From Octopus vulgaris (lineage: Eukaryota), in NCBI GenBank assembly GCA_951406725.2, contig OX597821.1, positions 40,982,001-41,046,000 of the forward strand: a DNA stretch of 64,000 bases. The letters run 5' to 3'. Under the pieces are notes generated by a model. The model saw nothing but the letters and a program-made list of their open reading frames with translations. It made no database searches and was not told where the DNA came from. A program made the translations under genes and the position numbers. This document shows, one piece after another, positions 3,580-38,631 of this stretch. Every line of letters begins with the position of its first letter. Position 1 is the stretch's first letter.

Positions 3580-4098
3580 GGTAACCACCAGGTCGCGATG
3601 AAGGTGAAGGCTGCTTTGCAAATATATATAAGTTTTTCTAGTGGCGTCTGCCACTGATGTCGAAAAACAAACAGTAAGCATAATTAAATCTCATAACAAA
3701 GAAAATGGAGAGTGTGAACACACAAAATTAATTTATTTAGATAATAGTTAATTTCATGTCATCTACGCACGTTTCAATTCCCACTTTCATTCATATTTTA
3801 CAATTAAAATTGCATTATGAATTTAAAAGGTATCTAAATAAATAAATTAACAGTCATATTAAATAAATGAGGGATAGAGAGCTTATTATACTCATAAGAA
3901 AAGAGAATATATGTGTGTATATGTCTGTGTGTATGAGTATGTGTGTGTGTGTGTGCAGTGTGTGTGTGTGTGCAGGTAAATGTGTGTGTGTGTGTGTGTG
4001 CAGGTAAATGTGTGTGTGTATGCATGCACGCATGTGTGTGTGTGTGCATGTTTGTATGTATATATGTACATATTTATATTTTATAGATTTTAAATAAT

Positions 4099-6514: not shown

Positions 6515-7164
6515 AATGTATCTATGTACCTTTCTATTTATCTATCCATCTACCCTCGCTCTCTACATATATAATCTACCCACCTGTCTACCTATCTATC
6601 CATCTATCTATTTCTTTGTCTTATATACAAAGTGTTTACATATAATTATACATAACACACACACACACATACACACACCAGTAATATTATACCCAATCTC
6701 ATATCAAGTACTTTAACCCTGACAGAAAAAAGTTAAAGAATCTTCACAAGTTGGGAATATGTTGAATATCATAACATAATGACAAACTGTGTCTTGAAAA
6801 GTGAGAGAGAGAGAGAGAGAGAGAGACATAGATGGTAAAATTGGAATAGAAGGGAAGAGCTAGAAACAGCCAACAGAACAGATGTAGATACAATAAGTCA
6901 ACGCGTACATAGAAATAAATCCCGTGTGTTTGTATGAATTCATGAATGAAGATGGGTTGCAAGGAGATTGCAAGCTTCTCACACTACAGCATGGCCCGTG
7001 GCTACCTTTAACAGAGTCCATTCTGTTATAAGCATTTAGATCAGGTTGCTGGTATGAGAATATCGCATTCTCTACCTCTCACAAGTCTTGGAGACAGTAA
7101 CAAAGGCAAAAGGGCTGACCTTATACTTCTGGTTCAGGCATAAAAAATGAAAATGATACCAAAA

Positions 7165-7500
7165 GTGCAATGCAGGTTCAATTCCTATCTGTCTGTTTAT
7201 AATTTATCAATTTGTTGTTCTTTCTTTCTCATATATATATATATATATATATATAAAACCATCCGAGCATCCGAGCGTGCAATGCAGGTTCAATTCCTAT
7301 CTGTCTGTTTATAATTTATCAATTTGTTGTTCTTTCTTTCTCATTATATATATATATATATATATATAAAACCATCCGAGCATCCGAGTGTGCAATGCAG
7401 GTTCAATTCCTATCTGTCTGTTTATAATTTATCAATTTGTTGTTCTTTCTTTCTCATTATATATATATATATATATATATATAAAACCATCCGAGCATCC
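7165..7500. repeat. Three tandem copies of a 112-113 bp unit containing a (TA)n tract
   Basis: gtgcaatgcaggttcaattcctatctg starts at 7165, 7277 and 7390. Confidence 0.95.
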
Positions 7501-7922
7501 AGAGCAACAAACTGGCTTCTGTGTCGGTGGCACATAAAAAGCACAATTCGAGCATGATTGTTACCTGCGATGCCTTACTGCCACTTGTGCTGGTGGTACG
7601 TGAAAACAACATTTGAGTGAGATCATTGCCATTGCCACTGGACTGGCTCCTGTGTACGTGGCACATAAAAGACATTTTAGTGTGGCCATTGCTGGTACCG
7701 TCTCACTGGCCCTCATTCCGGTGGAACGTAAAAGCACCCACTACACTCTCAGAATGGTTGGTGTTAGGAAGGGCATCCAGCTGTAGAAACTCTGCCAGAT
7801 CAGATTGGAGCCTGGTGCAGCCATCTGGTTTGCCAGACATCAGTCAAATCGTCCAACCCATGCTAGCACGGAAAGCGGACGTTAAATGATGAAGATGATG
7901 ATGATGATGATGATGATGATGA
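7483..7922 (+). mobile_element. RTE LINE 3' UTR with internal ~60 bp repeats and (GAT)n tail
   Basis: Same tail as the RTE ORF-bearing copies at 23306-24092 and 38632-39517. Confidence 0.85.
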
Positions 7923-7925
7923 ATG

Positions 7926-7957
<32 letters not shown>

Positions 7958-8406
7958 TTAATAAGGGTGAGAGAATTAGATACTAATTTAATAGTATATT
8001 TATTCCACACCAAGTGGCCTAGTGCTACGAGAAACCTGGATTATTATAATATTTTATAACATATTATAATATTTTCACAAAATAAATATAAGAGAGTGGT
8101 CACTATATTGATCACTCTAGCACCAGTTAATCCAAAAGGTTTCAACCACGAAAAATACATGTTTCCCATGAAAGCCAGTACGACTGTTAGCTCACACGGA
8201 CAGGGCAAATAAAAAATAACAAAAATAACAAAAACATTAATTATAATTATGCTGCATTTATTTCTAAATGCTGTATTTGTTTTCCGTGAGAGTTTGGCGC
8301 GCTGTTGGTTGGGGCATTTGAATTATAACGTCCGATGTAATCAATTGAACCGCACGCGTATTTATCGTTATGGTAAAATCTGGCGTGTGATTGAGTGGAT
8401 TTCATC

Positions 8407-8500
8407 CAGATAGTCTTGGCTGAAGAGCTACAAATGGATTATTGTAAGTAATATTACATTTAATTCATTAATAGCGAAACAATTGTCCCAAAATAATCTG
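8407..8500 (+). ncRNA. Type I hammerhead ribozyme, copy 1
   Basis: Stem I cagat..ttgg/ccaa..atctg; core CTGAAGA 8420-8426; stem II gcta...tagc 8427-8475; GAAA 8476-8479; stem III AC-AATT-GT; GTC triplet with predicted cleavage after 8487. Confidence 0.88.
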
Positions 8501-8940
8501 TATTTTTGTTATTTTTTATTTGCCCTGTCCGTGTGAGCTAACTGTCGTACTGGCTTTCATGGGAAACATGTATTTTTCGTGGTTGAAACCTTTTGGATTA
8601 ACTGGTGCTAGAGTGATCAATATAGTGACCACTCTCTTATATTTATTTTGTGAAAATATTATAATATGTTATAAAATATTATAATAATCCAGGTTTCTCG
8701 TAGCACTAGGCCACTTGGTGTGGAATAAATATACTATTAAATTAGTATCTAATTCTCTCACCCTTATTAATTAATTATAATTATGCTGCATTTATTTCTA
8801 AATGCTGTATTTGTTTTCCGTGAGAGTTTGGCGCGCTGTTGGTTGGGGCATTTGAATTATAACGTCCGATGTAATCAATTGAACCGCACGCGTATTTATC
8901 GTTATGGTAAAATCTGGTGTGTGATTGAGTGGATTTCATC

Positions 8941-9034
8941 CAGATAGTCTTGGCTGAAGAGCTACAAATGGATTATTGTAAGTAATATTACATTTAATTC
9001 ATTAATAGCGAAACAATTGTCCCAAAATAATCTG
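8941..9034 (+). ncRNA. Type I hammerhead ribozyme, copy 2
   Basis: Same sequence as 8407-8500, offset +534. Confidence 0.88.
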
Positions 9035-9474
9035 TATTTTTGTTATTTTTTATTTGCCCTGTCCGTGTGAGCTAACAGTCGTACTGGCTTTCATGGGAAA
9101 CATGTATTTTTCGTGGTTGAAACCTTTTGGATTAACTGGTGCTAGAGTGATCAATATAGTGACCACTCTCTTATATTTATTTTGTGAAAATATTATAATA
9201 TGTTATAAAATATTATAATAATCCAGGTTTCTCGTAGCACTAGGCCACTTGGTGTGGAATAAATATACTATTAAATTAGTATCTAATTCTCTCACCCTTA
9301 TTAATTAATTATAATTATGCTGCATTTATTTCTAAATGCTGTATTTGTTTTCCGTGAGAGTTTGGCGCGCTGTTGGTTGGGGCATTTGAATTATAACGTC
9401 CGATGTAATCAATTGAACCGCACGCGTATTTATCGTTATGGTAAAATCTGGTGTGTGATTGAGTGGATTTCATC

Positions 9475-9568
9475 CAGATAGTCTTGGCTGAAGAGCTACA
9501 AATGGATTATTGTAAGTAATATTACATTTAATTCATTAATAGCGAAACAATTGTCCCAAAATAATCTG
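9475..9568 (+). ncRNA. Type I hammerhead ribozyme, copy 3
   Basis: Same sequence as 8407-8500, offset +1068. Confidence 0.88.
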
Positions 9569-10008
9569 TATTTTTGTTATTTTTTATTTGCCCTGTCCGT
9601 GTGAGCTAACAGTCGTACTGGCTTTCATGGGAAACATGTATTTTTCGTGGTTGAAACCTTTTGGATTAACTGGTGCTAGAGTGATCAATATAGTGACCAC
9701 TCTCTTATATTTATTTTGTGAAAATATTATAATATGTTATAAAATATTATAATAATCCAGGTTTCTCGTAGCACTAGGCCACTTGGTGTGGAATAAATAT
9801 ACTATTAAATTAGTATCTAATTCTCTCACCCTTATTAATTAATTATAATTATGCTGCATTTATTTCTAAATGCTGTATTTGTTTTCCGTGAGAGTTTGGC
9901 GCGCTGTTGGTTGGGGCATTTGAATTATAACGTCCGATGTAATCAATTGAACCGCACGCGTATTTATCGTTATGGTAAAATCTGGCGTGTGATTGAGTGG
10001 ATTTCATC

Positions 10009-10102
10009 CAGATAGTCTTGGCTGAAGAGCTACAAATGGATTATTGTAAGTAATATTACATTTAATTCATTAATAGCGAAACAATTGTCCCAAAATAATC
10101 TG
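10009..10102 (+). ncRNA. Type I hammerhead ribozyme, copy 4
   Basis: Same sequence as 8407-8500, offset +1602. Confidence 0.88.
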
Positions 10103-10245
10103 TATTTTTGTTATTTTTTATTTGCCCTGTCCGTGTGAGCTAACAGTCGTACTGGCTTTCATGGGAAACATGTATTTTTCGTGGTTGAAACCTTTTGGAT
10201 TAACTGTTGCTAGAGTGATCAATATAGTGACCACTCTCTTATATT

Positions 10246-10281
<36 letters not shown>

Positions 10282-10285
<4 letters not shown>

Positions 10286-10504
10286 AGAAAATGGAGAAAA
10301 CTTCAGATCAACAAACAAATCAATTGGACCACATCTGCAGCTTAGTTAATATGTAAAACATGACAACATTTATGTGACATAACAATTCTTACAGCCGTTT
10401 CTGCTTCCGATACCAGTCAGTATCGGAAGCAGAATAATAATAAGCTGTAGATGTGGTCCAATTGATTTGTTTGTTGATCTGATTTTTTTCTCCATTTTCT
10501 CATT
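10282..10504. repeat. Fold-back (inverted repeat) element, probable Penelope pseudo-LTR relic
   Basis: About 63 bp outer arms (10282-10344 and 10441-10504), inner 15 bp hairpin ttctgcttccgatac/gtatcggaagcagaa, minus-strand GAAACGGCTGTA. Confidence 0.7.
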
Positions 10505-10780
10505 ATTTATGTTTGATTCCTGATAAACTTTTGTCTATTCTGTTGTTACCTGTACACTACTGAGCATAGTTTGCCTGCATACCCATGTACAGAGATGGGG
10601 GTGCGGGAACGCATGTGGGGTGGGGTTGGTGGTGGTTGGGGGTGGGTGGAGGAGGTATCGATGAAGAGAGAAGGTAGGAGTGAAGAGAGGAAGTAGGTGT
10701 CAGATGAAGAGAGGAGTGTGTGTATATACATAAATATTATGTATATGTATGTATGTGTGCGTGTGTGTATGTGTGTATAC

Positions 10781-10824
<44 letters not shown>

Positions 10825-10880
10825 GGGTAAACAGGTAGATTAGGTATACACACACATACGTATATATATAAATATATATA

Positions 10881-11271
10881 CTCTTTTACTCTTTTACTTG
10901 TTTCAGTCATTTTGACTGCGACCATGCTGGAGCACCGCCTTTAGTCGAGCAAATCGACCCCGGGATTTATTCTTTGTAAGCTCAGTACTTATTCTATCGG
11001 TCTCTTTTGCCAAACCGCTAAGTGACGGGGACGTAAACACGTCAGCATCGGTTGTCAAGCAATGCTAGGGGGACAAACACAGACGCACACACATACATAT
11101 ATATATACATATATACGACAGGCTTCTTTCAGTTTCCGTCTACCAAATCCACTCACAAGGCATTGGTCGGCCCGGGGCTATAGCAGAAGACACTTGCCCA
11201 AGATGCCACGCAGTGGGACTGAACCCGGAACCATGTGGTTGGTTAGCAAGCTACTTACCACACAGCCACTC
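10881..11271 (-). mobile_element. SINE family A, full length
   Basis: Reverse complement of the family sequence. Confidence 0.9.
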
Positions 11272-11279
11272 ATATATAA

Positions 11280-11612
11280 ATGATAAAAAAGAAACTGGAG
11301 AGTTTTAACAGAACTCTCAATTTATTAACATTTTTCTCATTTTATACAAGCCTACAATTGTTTCCATATCTACGCTCACTTACATTACAAATTTATAATT
11401 CAAAATTGCATTATGAAAATTAAAAGGTAGATATTTTTTCAGATTGAAAATTACCTCATAATTTTCATAATGGAATTTTCATAATGCATTTCAATTTATA
11501 AATTTATAACCTGAATGAGGGTAGATAAGGAAACAATTGTAGACCTGTATAAATTGACAAAATGTTAATAAATTGATAGTTCTCTGTTAAAACTCTCATT
11601 TTTTCTTCATCA
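11280..11612. repeat. Diverged fold-back with decayed hammerhead, Penelope-type relic
   Basis: Arms include ctacaattgtttcc/ggaaacaattgtag; minus strand reads CTGAAAA-a-atatctac...gtagatat-g-GAAAC-AATT-GTA. Confidence 0.65.
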
Positions 11613-11835
11613 TATACTACAATAAATTATGCCCATATATATTGAAGTGAAACAAGCACCTATATAAAGAATACCCAAACTCTGTAATGTATTTAATATT
11701 GGTGCCTATTAAATAATAAATACTAATACTACCATGAAATGCAGGACAGGGGAAAGTTTCCCCAATATATTGGGTGAAACCAGAGAAGCTTGAATGTAAA
11801 CATCCCTTTAAAGAGGAATCTATATCCTCACAATA

Positions 11836-11890
<55 letters not shown>

Positions 11891-12166
11891 GAAGAAGAAG
11901 AAGAAGAAGATGAAGAAGAAGACGAAGAATAAGAAGAAGAAAAAGAAAAAGAAAATGGCGATTGTGAGGCTAATAAGTGTTTATTATCAACAACAAATCA
12001 AACATTACACCTTACAGCTGTTTCATTCCTTCATGACACCATCCCTTCATAAGGCTAACATAACCTCTAAACGAATTTTATATATACATATATATATATA
12101 TGTATATATGTATGTATGTATGTATCTGTATTTATATACATATATATATTTATATATATATATATA

Positions 12167-12350
12167 CCGGAGTAAACACATAAATGTGAAACAAGGTGGA
12201 AAAAAGAGTACTCAAATACCAGTGGTAGAGTAATATGCTTTATTTAAAGCAGCAGAAAATTCAACAAAACCTGTTACTCTGGTGAAAGGCAACGGGAAAC
12301 TCAGAGTAACAGGTTTTGTTGAATTTTCTGCTGCTTTAAATAAAGTATAT
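12167..12350. repeat. Fold-back element with a perfect 44 bp inverted repeat, between (TA)n tracts
   Basis: 12238-12281 is the exact reverse complement of 12302-12345; GAAACTCAGAGTA lies at the loop edge. Confidence 0.85.
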
Positions 12351-12436
12351 ATATATATATATTTAAAAAAAACATTATCGGTAAACTTATACACTACTTG
12401 ATAAAATTATTAATTATTAATTAATTAATTAATTAA

Positions 12437-12575
<139 letters not shown>

Positions 12576-14548
12576 AAATGCTGTAACTTTCAGTGCTGGA
12601 TCCAAAACAATGAACTACCAATACACAAAGTAGGACTTGGTATGGACTTATAAACCTCCAATATACTCATTAGCATATTATGGCTGCAAAACGAAATACA
12701 GTTTCCCTTCCAGTAATTAATGTGTACCAATTGCCAGGAATGGGCTTAGTATGTAAATTGGTCTCTCCAATAGGTGTTACACTGTATAATCTTAGTGGCT
12801 ATACAAGCAAGGTATTTGTGGCCAGTTAATAGGTTGGATGTGGTGCTGAGGAGGAACAAGAAGTCCTGAAATGTGTATATACAGCAAATGGTGAACTAAA
12901 GTTAGAGGTACAGGCTGTGAGTAAGTGGTTTGTCAGGGGGAAAGGTATGTATGTATGTATGTATATATGTATGTATGTATGTATGTGTATGTATGTGTGT
13001 ATGTATGTATGTGTGTATGTGTGTATGTATGTATGTGTGTATGTATGTATGTATGTATGTATGTGTGTGTGTGTGTGTATAGATAGATAGATAGATAGAT
13101 AGATGAGTAAATGAGAAAGCTTTACATTATCATTTGCCCTTCTAGGAAGATCCTCAAATCTCAAATAAGTTAAGTTTACACAGTATTATATAGAAATGGT
13201 CAGTGAAAAAATAAAAAAATCAGAAGGCAAATTGAAAGTCATGGCAGAAATGCTTTTGATCAAAGGCTTTCTCAATTATGTTTGACCTAGGTCTAAAAGT
13301 CTGCAATAATGATATTCTTATATTTCTGAGATGTTTCCATATTATTAAGATATTAAACAAAACATATGGAACAAAGCAGAAATGGTCACAAACATGACCT
13401 GACCAAAAGAGATTTCGAGTGGCTCTCCCCCTCTCTCTCTTCTTTTCTAGATATTCTTGAACAATGTTAATGAGGACTACCTCACCAGTACCATTACCAT
13501 GATTACTACCACCCCACCCCCATAACAACAACAATACAAACACTAATACTTCATCATTAACTATTTGTTTCCATATTCTTAAATGTAATTCCGCTAAACA
13601 AAATCTCTGAAGATGTTTGTTTACCAAATTCCATATTTCTGCCTTAGTTCCTGACAAATTTATTGAGTAAATTATGATAGCATCTAAGAATATATTGATT
13701 AAACTATCACAGCATTGTTAAATGATGACCAATCAATGGAATTGTTAAATGGTTATATAGATTAGAATTAGAATATAAAAGTTCTTCTAATGAACAGCTG
13801 CGTTTTTAACTAGAATAAACAATGTGCCAAATCTAATTCCTGACAAACAGAACCAATTCTTTAGATGAATAATACAAAAACTGTGTGGGAGAATATAGAA
13901 GGAAATATATTAATACTTTCAAACAAATTCTTGATTTATATTAATGTATTTTTCTGTTTCTTTTGTGTCACAATTCAAAGAGAGGTGTTTATTTGCAAGA
14001 TTTGACACAAAATTATGCTGTAACACACACACACACGCATGCACACACACACACACATACACACACACAACACACACACACACAGATCAATGTAAAACAC
14101 TCATATTCACATGAATATATGCATAATTAAAACTGTATGTTTATATATGTATGCAAACATGTGTAAATATCTATGAGCATACACATATATGCAAACAAAC
14201 ACATATGAAGAAACATACATCTATAAACGCACGCACACACACACACACACACACACACAGACATTTTATTTCACACTGAAAATTTCAACTCCTATGAAAC
14301 AGAAAATTCAGTAAATATAAAACTTACCTATAATCTCATTGGTCATATCCTTTTAAATGTTAATCATATATATACATACAGATGTACATACATATGTGTG
14401 TGTATATACATATATACTGACGTATATTTGCCATTTAAATATGGCTAACCCCTAAGGGTGGATGCTACTGTAGTTTGTAGCCCCAGGAGGAAACCTCCTC
14501 CAGCTGGCTATAGACACACTTTCATTTTTTTATAACTCGCTCTGAGAT

Positions 14549-14580
<32 letters not shown>

Positions 14581-14662
14581 TATATAATGTATGTATGTAT
14601 GTATGAGTGAGTGGACAACCGAAATAAAAGGGCACTCAATACATTTAGGAAGAGTTACATGC

Positions 14663-14836
14663 ATTATTTAAAACAGTTTGATTTGGTTCCTCACTACTAC
14701 AAGTTTCGCATGCACACACACACACACTCTTTCAAGCTTTGGATTGCTGAATCAAAAGCCTGAAAGAGTCACACTTCCATTAGGGGCCTACGAAACTTGA
14801 AGTAGCATGGAACCAAATCACAATGTTTTAAATAAT
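14663..14836. repeat. Diverged fold-back relic
   Basis: tgatttggttcc..ctactacaagtttcg versus cgaaacttgaagtag..ggaaccaaatca, with an inner hairpin. Confidence 0.65.
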
Positions 14837-25292: not shown

Positions 25293-25998
25293 ATATAAGT
25301 GTGCGCACAAACACATGCTATGTACATATATTATGTGTATCTGACAAGAAGATTTGACTGTGAAAGCAATTTCTTACTCTACTTATGTGGATGAACATAT
25401 AAGACACAGGCTTAAAGAGTAGATATCAGTGAAACCCTCTTTAATGATAATATTTCAACTATTATTACAAATTTTGCGTAGTTCAAGCTTTAGACATGAA
25501 AAAGATGTTTTAATGAAAATCAATATATATATATTTAAATATTAAGGGAACTAAGTCCTAAATATGTGAGATGTTGGCCAATTACAGATTGGAGAAATAT
25601 TAAGAATAAAAATGTAAAGAAAAGTTTGTGACAGTTAAAGAGATAGTTTAGACAATAAAGATGCATCGAAACACACTTTTACATTGATTGGTATTTTGAG
25701 GTGTGAGCAAGTGATCAAAGAATAATGCTGAGCCTGGGGTACATCAGATGAGCCCAGAAATTCTACTTCTGAGTCCAGATCAAAAGCTATTGTTATAATA
25801 GTGAAGCAAAGAGAACAATCAGCCAGAGTCTGTAGCTTATTAGAGATTCTGTGTAAGCTATTCAGTCAAATGGTCATATGGACGTGATGAATTTGTTGCT
25901 TTGAAACAAAATCTGCAGTTTCTTCACTAATTCATAGTAGATGTTCCCTTTTACTAGAATTGAAGAAAAACCATTCATATGTACTGTGTAGCTGAAAT

Positions 25999-26414
25999 CC
26001 TATTTCTTTACTACCCACAAGGGGCTAAACAGAGAAAGGACAAACAAGGACACACAAATGGATTAAGTCGATTATATCGACCTCAGTGCGTAACTGGTAC
26101 TTATTTAATCTACCCCGAAAGGATGAAAGGCAAAGTCGACCTCACCAGAATTTGAACTCAGAACGTAACGGCAGACAAAATACCTATTTCTTTACTACCC
26201 ACAAGGGGCTAAACACAGAGGGGACAAACAAGGACAGACAAATGGATTAAGTCGATTATATCGACCTCAGTGCGTAACTGTTACTTATTTAATCAACCCC
26301 GAAAGGATGAAAGGCAAAGTTGACCTCAGCAGAATTTGAACTCAGAACGTAACTGCAGACGAAATACTGCTAAGCGTTTCGCCTGGTGTGCTAACGTTTC
26401 TGCCAGCTCACCGC
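25999..26414 (-). mobile_element. SINE family B tandem partial dimer
   Basis: cctatttctttactacccacaagggg at 25999 and 26183 (184 bp period). Confidence 0.9.
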
Positions 26415-26721
26415 TGAAATCTGTAACATTTACATTTCTGTTGTGTAACTGGGAGTTGTACATTTTAGCTTGCCTTGTAGAATATACGTTATGTCTTTAA
26501 TTATTTTATTGAACGTATATACTGCATTGGATGTGTTGGTGACTGTGATACCATGGCATTTTGTAAACCTTGATTTTCTCTCTTTATGGAACTCATTTGA
26601 CTGGGAATTTTTTGAAGCTTGTAAAAGTGTTGCTGCCCTCTTCATTGGTCTAGTATCATGTTGCCATAGTAATTGTTTGGGGTGGAAGGAGAATGTGATA
26701 ATGAAGTGTGGGGGTGAGAAA

Positions 26722-26955
26722 AAAGGCTGCGAGCTGGCAGAAACGTTAGCACGCCAGGCGAAATGCATAGCCGTATTTCGTCTGCCGTTACGTTCTGAGT
26801 TCAAATTCCGTCGAGGTCGACTTTGCCTTTCATCCTTTCGGGGTCGATTAAATAAGTACCAGTTACGCACTGGAGTCGATGTAATCGACTTAATCCGTTT
26901 GTCTGTCCTTGTTTGTCCCCTCTGTGTTTAGCCCCTTGTGGGTAGTAAAGAAATA
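26722..26955 (+). mobile_element. SINE family B, full length, with diverged target-site duplication
   Basis: Family sequence; gaagtgtgggg...gaaaaaa on both sides. Confidence 0.9.
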
Positions 26956-27269
26956 GAAGTGTGGGGAAGGGAAAAAATGACAGAGAAGTGTTGCAGTTGA
27001 TTTGGTGAGGTATGTGAGTGTGTGTGTGTGTGTGTGTGCACGCAATAGTGTAGATTATATAGAAGGCAAAGGGAGTTGAGCAACAGTATAACATTTATTT
27101 AGTCCTAGAAGAATGAGAACTCATTGATTAAAAACAACCATTTTTATTGATGTTCCAAGAATACGGGACAAAGAAGTGATGATGGAATTCAGTCAGTCTG
27201 TTACATCTGCACCATCATTATCTGATGATTGAAATGTTCCACTAGTATTCCTTAACAGCAAGGAACTTT

Positions 27270-37503: not shown

Positions 37504-37873
37504 AGAATATTGTTGAGAGTGACTTCACAGTTTCAACCAACTAAACCATCCAACAATGGCTAAGCTGGCTGAAACTTTGCAGTCACTGTCAACAACATTC
37601 TTTGAAGTAAAGATTTTTGCTAACATAACATGGCAGTCCTGGTTTAGGACGAATGTTGCTGTAATTTACCCCCTGGAGACATTGTCTCCAGCTGGTTATA
37701 CAACATGATCTGCGTCCTTATATTTTTGAAAAAGCGAATATAAAGACACAGATCATGTCCTATAGCCTGCTGGAGATGGTGTCTCTTGGGACTAAATTAC
37801 AGCAACATTCATCCTAAACCAGGACTGCCATGTTATGTTGGCAAACAATCTTTACTCCAAAGTACTGTTGCTG
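37504..37873. repeat. Double fold-back (zig-zag) relic of a pseudo-LTR-like repeat
   Basis: Hairpin 37504-37601 with GAAACTTTGCAGTC; second hairpin with ~135 bp arms (37589-37725 and 37737-37873); related pieces at about 3390-3490 and 14440-14520. Confidence 0.8.
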
Positions 37874-38337
37874 AATATCTCTTGTTGTAAGATTTAAAAA
37901 ATAGTGAATAAGAATAATAAATTTATACCCTAGAAAACTAGGGAATAACCCATCAGATTAATGTAAAATTGTTTTATTATAACTTAACTTAAAAACAAAC
38001 ATTAATATATATATTTGTGTATGTATATGTTATAACTTTCGTTTGAAGCAGCTTAAATAATGTAAACATTATTATGATTTTACTTAATGTGTGTGTATGG
38101 TTAGATGGTGTGGAAGTGTAGTACATCAAAGCTTTAAAGAGGTCTACCCTGGACAAAGTACCGCCATTTCTCAATGTTTAACCACATACATACATCAAAT
38201 ATGTCATATTAATAATGTTTAAATATATACAAATACATGCATACATACACACGGAATATGAATGTATGTGTCTGTATGTATATATGTATGTATGTGTGTG
38301 TGTGTATGTCATCAAATATTTAGATAGATATGTCTGT

Positions 38338-38420
38338 CTGATGAAGCATCATTACATATTTAAATGGATTTGATTATTCTTGAAAAACTTTGTTTAATTA
38401 AGGAAGCAGAAACAGCTGTA
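38338..38420 (+). ncRNA. Decayed type I hammerhead motif
   Basis: CTGATGA-agcatcatta...taaggaagca-GAAAC-AGCT-GTA; stem II has three mismatches and stem I is not evident. Confidence 0.55.
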
Positions 38421-38631
38421 AATTATGAGATGTGTCATTTGTTTGTATAAAATATTTAAATTAATTTGCATTTATAATTGTTCAATATATTGTTTTGTTT
38501 TCCATTTCTTATTTATATTTATATATTAATAAACTGTATGTTTATTTTCTCTTTATCTATTGGAATAACATTGTTATTGATACAGGTAATGTAAACCAGT
38601 AAATTCTTCAGATATTTAATATTCCTTAGGT

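Follow-up and report, generated by a model that had tools for sequence, protein, structure and literature searches.

A young, non-coding tandem repeat with predicted hammerhead ribozymes and an inverted arm in Octopus vulgaris: most likely a non-autonomous Penelope-like insertion

The window, a stretch of 64,000 nucleotides of Octopus vulgaris, has the character of AT-rich, microsatellite-laden animal DNA. Inside a (TA)n tract it carries an insert with 3.77 copies of a 534-bp unit, preceded head-to-head by an inverted arm (Table 1). The reverse complement of the arm matches the units as the earlier note had reported, with one mismatch in unit 1 (at 8543) and none in units 2 and 3 (9035-9313 and 9569-9847). 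In a BLAST self-search of the window the inverted match between the arm and unit 1 has an E value of 2e-141. No further copy of the 534-bp unit is found elsewhere in the window. The units differ at three positions in all, a T at 8918/9452 being present only in units 2 and 3, and for this reason the insertion is judged from its sequence to be young. Rolling replication of a single circle may or may not be the source of the array. Any target-site duplication would be masked by the (TA)n. The name tail is given to 8650-8779 by analogy.

Table 1. Features of the insert and of the predicted hammerhead (positions in the window).
Feature	Position	Strand	Remarks
Left (TA)n target tract	7926..7952	.	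final 4 bases (TATA) common to the arm
Inverted arm, 279 nt	7949..8227	-	corresponds to unit positions 8501-8779; without hammerhead, with the 130-nt tail
Filler, 8 nt	8228..8235	.	finishes a tandem copy of the arm's terminal 9 bases; putative slippage
Unit 1, 534 bp	8236..8769	+	10-nt overlap with the arm's start (8770-8779 equivalent)
Unit 2	8770..9303	+	same sequence as unit 3; differs twice from unit 1
Unit 3	9304..9837	+	identical to unit 2
Unit 4, partial	9838..10249	+	ends 160 nt past the predicted cut
Tail, ~130 nt	8650..8779	+	between both (TA)n junction positions; in arm and units 1-3, not in unit 4
Right (TA)n tract	10250..10280	.	common to the end of the older head-to-head stub 10281-10510
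Predicted type I hammerhead	8407..8500	+	repeats at 8941-9034, 9475-9568, 10009-10102
Stem I	8407-8419 / 8488-8500	+	11 of 13 positions pair
CUGAAGA core	8420-8426	+	
Stem II, 4 bp	8427-8430 / 8472-8475	+	41-nt structured loop
GAAA core	8476-8479	+	
Palindromic stem III, CAAUUG	8480-8485	+	
Predicted cut	after 8487 (GUC 8485-8487)	+	cleavage is a prediction from the motif

The unit is non-coding, with stops in all six frames and no Pfam family for three open stretches. No partner ORF is apparent among the 63 ORFs of the window. Searches of metagenome contigs and of viral contigs returned no related loci. The typical layout of Penelope insertions comprises a partial tandem, an adjacent inverted and 5'-truncated copy, a tail and a microsatellite target (PMC8557442, PMC3846280). 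The locus has a partial direct tandem with an inverted 5'-truncated copy, a tail at one end and (TA)n on both sides. The Penelope-like origin proposed earlier is supported by this layout, by the (TA)n target and by a type I hammerhead with palindromic stem III. The likeness to the endonuclease-bearing Penelope-like elements (PLEs; Penelope/Poseidon, Neptune, Naiad) extends to the pLTR arrangement, the optional tail at one end and the lack of a visible target duplication (PMC8557442, PMC3846280), and the palindromic helix III is shared with PLE hammerheads (PMC4209133). On the other hand, the repeat differs from these elements in having no RT or GIY-YIG ORF, in a tail of ~130 nt against the 30-40 bp reported, and in a hammerhead with a 41-nt loop II that is missed by Rfam.

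The second group to which the repeat can be compared are the non-LTR retrozymes, non-coding tandem units with a type I hammerhead (PMC7229834) that were recently argued to derive from Penelope ends (bioRxiv 10.64898/2026.07.22.740005). All four units carry the motif, tandem joints are present, coding capacity is absent and the repeat is multicopy. As in metazoan non-LTR retrozymes, the tandem is non-coding and of low GC, each unit has one type I hammerhead, the copy number is high and the repeat occurs in presumed-RNA runs. The unit of 534 bp lies above the 150-450 bp first reported (PMC7229834) and within the 51-972 bp of a later survey (bioRxiv 10.64898/2026.07.22.740005). The retrozyme class is assigned here from sequence, circular RNA and cleavage belonging to the description of the known retrozymes. 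Inverted arms are a feature of this locus for which the available text of two retrozyme reports gives no description (PMC7229834, bioRxiv 10.64898/2026.07.22.740005). The locus is most likely a non-coding, hammerhead-bearing, non-autonomous Penelope-like element, alias a non-LTR retrozyme.

A tandem array of the retrozyme type is tied at one locus to the marks of Penelope (inverted arm, tail and TA target), and their joint presence supports the view that animal retrozymes are moved by enzymes of the Penelope type. The layout of a ribozyme repeat with an inverted end is already known, and the single locus is an ordinary example of it. What is new here is the abundance and tandem form of the family, the recurrent (TA)n junction positions and an editing-like signal. 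In one annotated octopus genome, 6.83% is reported to consist of Penelope-like elements (PMC13282606); a motif search of the supplement of that report returned no sequences of the unit.

The hammerhead had been predicted by the earlier note, and the motif is indeed complete in four of four units, with the CUGANGA and GAAA core, stems I-III and a NUH cut site of the type I class. It stands as a motif-level prediction: in the window no Rfam match reaches the gathering score, and the 32 weak matches in 7000-12600 include no hammerhead family. The miRNA-family matches in this interval are far under the cut-offs and reflect hairpins. A strict descriptor, hand-written after the motif had been seen, has four matches in the window, all in these units, and none in 20,000 mononucleotide shuffles of the unit. 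The next potential pair beyond stem I, C8406-U8501, fails. In local folding, the hammerhead-compatible structure has -21.2 kcal/mol against a minimum of -22.5 kcal/mol. The pairing probability of stem I is 0.8-0.9 in the single unit, 0.1 in a fragment of 111 nt and 0.01 in a dimer fold with a span limit of 150 nt, where a different hairpin covers 8501. According to these models, the formation of stem I depends on context.

The commonest family variant inside the motif (8958 A>C, 57% and 73% of the depth in two DNA runs) falls at the free N of CUGANGA. Among the 38 listed family differences none affects another core base, stem II or stem III, and one of low share lies in stem I (9027). This pattern is a weak sign that the core is under constraint. 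Palindromic stem III is typical of the metazoan Penelope hammerheads, which are thought to act as dimers and have low activity in vitro (PMC4209133), and eight of nine frog hammerhead dimers gave no cleavage in vitro (bioRxiv 10.64898/2026.07.22.740005). Inside loop II of the hammerhead (8434-8449) each unit also has an ATG and, after it, GTAAGT, a perfect splice-donor-like sequence. No joint that skips from this donor (after 8443) is present in the contigs of the runs X6 or X2.

The family was followed in the contigs of public runs. Half or more of the sequence words of the unit are present in 20 of 24 listed runs (9 studies, three organism labels), and the contigs of four runs were aligned to one unit, 8850-9383. 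Contigs matching the unit number 2270 and 444 in two DNA runs, with many variants, and 24 and 32 in two presumed-RNA runs, X6 and X2 being taken as RNA by guess only; the summed contig depths do not give a copy number. The tandem joint from 9383 to 8850 is found in three of the four runs, and the joint of X2 that goes back in the unit is equally compatible with a circle or a tandem transcript. The family of the 534-bp unit is abundant and tandem. The run X1 is not counted as independent, as it holds a trace of the base private to units 2 and 3 and may share the focal locus. One X1 contig (9010-9290), in which the G of GAAA is joined to 9290 through nine other letters, is a copy from which the cut site and the bulk of the arm interval are missing. 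The loose ends at 9061 (three runs) and 8930 (one run) mark related families whose sequence departs from the unit after a shared part; these are candidates for the autonomous partner.

Among the 23 loose ends listed of 140, at least three run into (TA)n: 9313 in X6, 9183 in X2, and 9301 plus 8 nt in X6. The first two correspond to the unit positions of the left and right junctions of the insert. The X2 piece that ends at 9183 differs from the focal locus by nine letters and one gap in 153 and is probably another copy; the X6 end at 9313 could come from the focal locus itself. The unit has 15 TA-like clusters, and a match of both junction positions would arise by chance in ~1%. The recurrence of both (TA)n junction positions in public runs suggests two preferred, fixed start sites ~130 nt apart that define the tail. 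The same 23 loose ends show no pile-up at the cut or at the stem edge. The X1 end at 9032, near the stem edge, was set aside, for together with those at 9123 and 9268 it is a piece of one palindromic linker, which we take to be a library adapter.

The junctions of the insert lie 292 nt (left) and 160 nt (right) past the predicted cut, neither of them at the cut, and both sites fall in unpaired AU stretches of the predicted fold. The position at which the arm begins (8779 equivalent) and that at which the direct part begins (8770 equivalent) overlap by 10 nt, which by analogy is the twin priming geometry known from L1 (PMC2912911). The earlier proposal that the cDNA was primed at (TA)n is supported: the arm starts in the tract, as had been described, and overlaps it by a TATA of 4 nt, and X6 has a (TA)n loose end at the same unit position. 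As in 5'-inverted L1, the start of the inverted 5' segment abuts the 5' end of the direct part and a short target overlap is present (PMC2912911); the insert differs in having no poly(A) tail, in an internal site that seems fixed in the family (that of L1 is random) and in a template that would be a tandem or a circle. Pure random twin priming was dropped, since the start position of the arm recurs in X6. The green anole Poseidon element PAc likewise has two internal start sites and an AT-rich target (PMC11167929). PAc differs in being autonomous, in sites 30-40 nt apart and in starting without target homology (PMC11167929), whereas both junctions of the insert have a short TA overlap.

At the inner end, 13 bases (8488-8500) separate the predicted cut from the arm. 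Of the earlier description, the distance of 13 nt from the cut stands, the arm beginning one base outside stem I, and two details are refined: the hammerhead is a motif-level prediction, and the filler is not arbitrary. The filler ACAAAAAC yields a tandem copy of the last nine bases of the arm (TAACAAAAA at 8217 and 8226) plus a C, and because it re-copies the arm end the arm/filler junction is uncertain by ~2 nt. Such a filler points to slippage of the polymerase at a pause.

The reading favoured here, at slightly better than even, is dual-strand priming at two preferred sites together with a short cDNA that stalled at the folded ribozyme. A Penelope-type RT-endonuclease would mobilise the repeat in trans. 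Nicks in both strands of the (TA)n would leave two ends, each of which would prime cDNA within the RNA at one of two preferred AU-rich sites, 160 and 292 nt past the hammerhead cut. The right-hand cDNA would run for 3.77 units through four intact hammerheads, on a template that may be an uncut multimer or a re-ligated circle, and would end where the left-hand cDNA had begun. The left-hand cDNA, of 279 nt, would stall at the first base pair of stem I and slip back 9 nt, and the two cDNA ends would then be joined. The stop position would report a folded, possibly protein-bound, ribozyme, cut or uncut. Subsequently, transcripts through head-to-head copies would fold back and be edited by ADAR, a step for which the signal is at the family level. 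[quoted passage not shown] Against this reading count the single locus, the 9313 end of X6 that may stem from it, the low probability of stem I in the short fragment and in the dimer fold, the long tail, and the many helix ends of the predicted fold, at one or other of which a stop would not be rare; the reading is held just above the midpoint of confidence.

The earlier note had taken the arm end as indirect evidence of cleavage in vivo. This goes beyond the evidence: a stop at the outer edge of stem I is explained equally by a folded, uncut ribozyme, and with the cut and the edge 13 nt apart one locus cannot separate a cleaved end from a stall at the stem. It is unlikely that the template was a multimer with a hammerhead-cleaved 5' end, nearly to which the left cDNA ran. 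Once the flip is undone, the insert measures ~4.3 units and starts 13 nt past a cut, and a random end would fall 0-13 nt after the cut in 14 of 534 cases (2.6%), or within 15 nt on either side in 5.8%, both windows having been picked post hoc. Weak, dimer-dependent cleavage would spare the inner ribozymes (PMC4209133). However, the end coincides with the stem edge instead of the cut, and a released 3' product gives no reason to halt 13 nt early; four hammerheads were copied intact in the same insertion. Moreover, anole ribozyme mutants insert normally, and RNA-seq of that element gives no reads ending at the cut (PMC11167929).

Four neighbouring structures bear on the same point. The self-search of the window gave 15 inverted pairs, and besides the focal arm four head-to-head structures with a GAAA-palindrome-UA motif were picked. 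Their arm ends lie at about -25 and +45 nt from the predicted cut in the stub 10281-10510, at -94 and -94 in 11277-11616, at -7 and -27 in 12165-12350 and at -55 and -55 in 14626-14836. Seven of the eight arms extend past the predicted cut, which is suggestive, from sequence, against a cleavage stop and against the earlier inference; the stubs are older, carry decayed motifs and belong to different families, which BLAST does not relate to the focal unit.

The same scatter, from about -94 to +45, favours an insertion of the same type whose arm was simply truncated at random and ends near the ribozyme by chance. Inverted 5'-truncated copies are routine (PMC8557442), an inverted pLTR of a rotifer is 37 bp short (PMC3846280), and the models indicate that stem I may not form in the multimer. 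Random truncation is nevertheless fairly unlikely, as the end is base-exact at a landmark and the slippage filler suggests a pause.

A very unlikely course is self-priming, in which the first cDNA, or an antisense template, folded or jumped at 8501, was copied to 8779 and joined the (TA)n by overlap. For head-to-head Penelope structures that have palindromes at the junction, self-priming has been proposed (PMC3846280); the neighbours 10281-10510 and 14626-14836 have such palindromes, and the bottom strand of the filler resembles 8500-8509. The focal junction, however, has no palindrome and its spacer is 273 nt, the arm carries at 8543 the base of units 2-4 and not that of unit 1, and its outer (TA)n junction recurs in X6, as expected for a start site. 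An assembly artefact, namely a fold-back chimera, is extremely improbable. The contigs of the four runs provide no independent record that spans the junction, and no strand-changing joint is listed for them, contigs alone being unable to show its absence. Against a chimera, the palindrome is not centred, there is an 8-nt filler, (TA)n lies on both sides, private changes distinguish the units and the layout is the published one.

A very abundant young family permits the counting of arm ends relative to the cut and the stem edge. That arms pile up family-wide at the hammerhead, at either the stem I edge or the cut, and so record the state of the ribozyme during germ-line reverse transcription, is a tentative and rather doubtful expectation. 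If such a pile-up were true, the family, whose two fixed start sites would lie 130 nt from each other, would offer a natural readout of how Penelope hammerheads behave in vivo; a hard wall at 8488, if true, would show that cleaved RNA serves as template. The role of the hammerhead in Penelope-like elements has been called unclear (PMC8557442), and insertion in vitro can do without it (PMC11167929). A literature search covering few subscription journals returned no study in which the ends of inverted arms are mapped relative to the hammerhead cut.

Insertions of this kind are ready-made long double-stranded RNAs. The suggestion of a dsRNA of ~280 bp as an ADAR substrate is retained in part: the arm and unit 1 are predicted to fold with 278 of 279 pairs, and an editing-like signal exists at the family level, not specific to the locus. 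The two DNA runs, which come from other individuals, lack 14 of the 38 listed differences, and all 14 are A>G or T>C. They lie within 9074-9241, inside the arm interval, and none has a G on its 5' side (background, 12% of A). These sites derive from four X6 contigs, two of them with a depth under 5, and one site is also present in X2; their reads are not assignable to the focal locus. A>G is also frequent in the X6 loose ends at 9110 and 9268. A transcript through a head-to-head pair would be expected to give such changes on both strands of one interval, and the A>G/T>C-only pattern fits ADAR editing of a fold-back RNA at the family level. Its presence in X6 and X2 would also fit transcription of the family. 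Editing of inverted repeats is known, including that of Penelope in a lizard (PMC5625713). The confinement of the changes to the arm has a probability of ~0.09 by chance for four contigs. Changes found only downstream of the hammerhead would favour a cleaved template, as if the arms of the family usually lacked the hammerhead; they follow equally from 3'-anchored arms.

Several other repeats of the window were recorded. Together with the focal insert, the four head-to-head stubs form a group of five within 7 kb; opposite-strand hammerhead pairs 100-700 bp apart are described in a flatworm (PMC4209133). The stub 10281-10510 has a 15-bp palindrome at its centre and one arm with GAAA-CGGCTG-TA, a related motif being present at 38409, and a junction palindrome occurs in 14626-14836 as well. 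The old palindromic pair 11277-11616, with 75% arm identity, shares CAATTG of the focal stem III in both arms and has a relative at about 3680-3850. The stubs 12165-12350 and 14626-14836 are related, with a 7-nt stem III-like motif and, in one arm each, an extra tail of at most ~70 nt. An imperfect palindrome of 286 bp (83%) at 37589-37874 gave no hammerhead-like motif in the scans. At 25995-26956 a 184-bp tandem pair is followed by an inverted copy (93% alike), of the short interspersed repeat type. Three 113-bp tandem copies (97% alike), each with (TA)n, lie at 7165-7505, 400 bp to the left of the insertion. Decayed single hammerhead-like remnants are found at 12013-12060 (- strand) and 38334-38430 (+ strand), the latter with a long loop II and an ATG placed similarly to that of the focal hammerhead.
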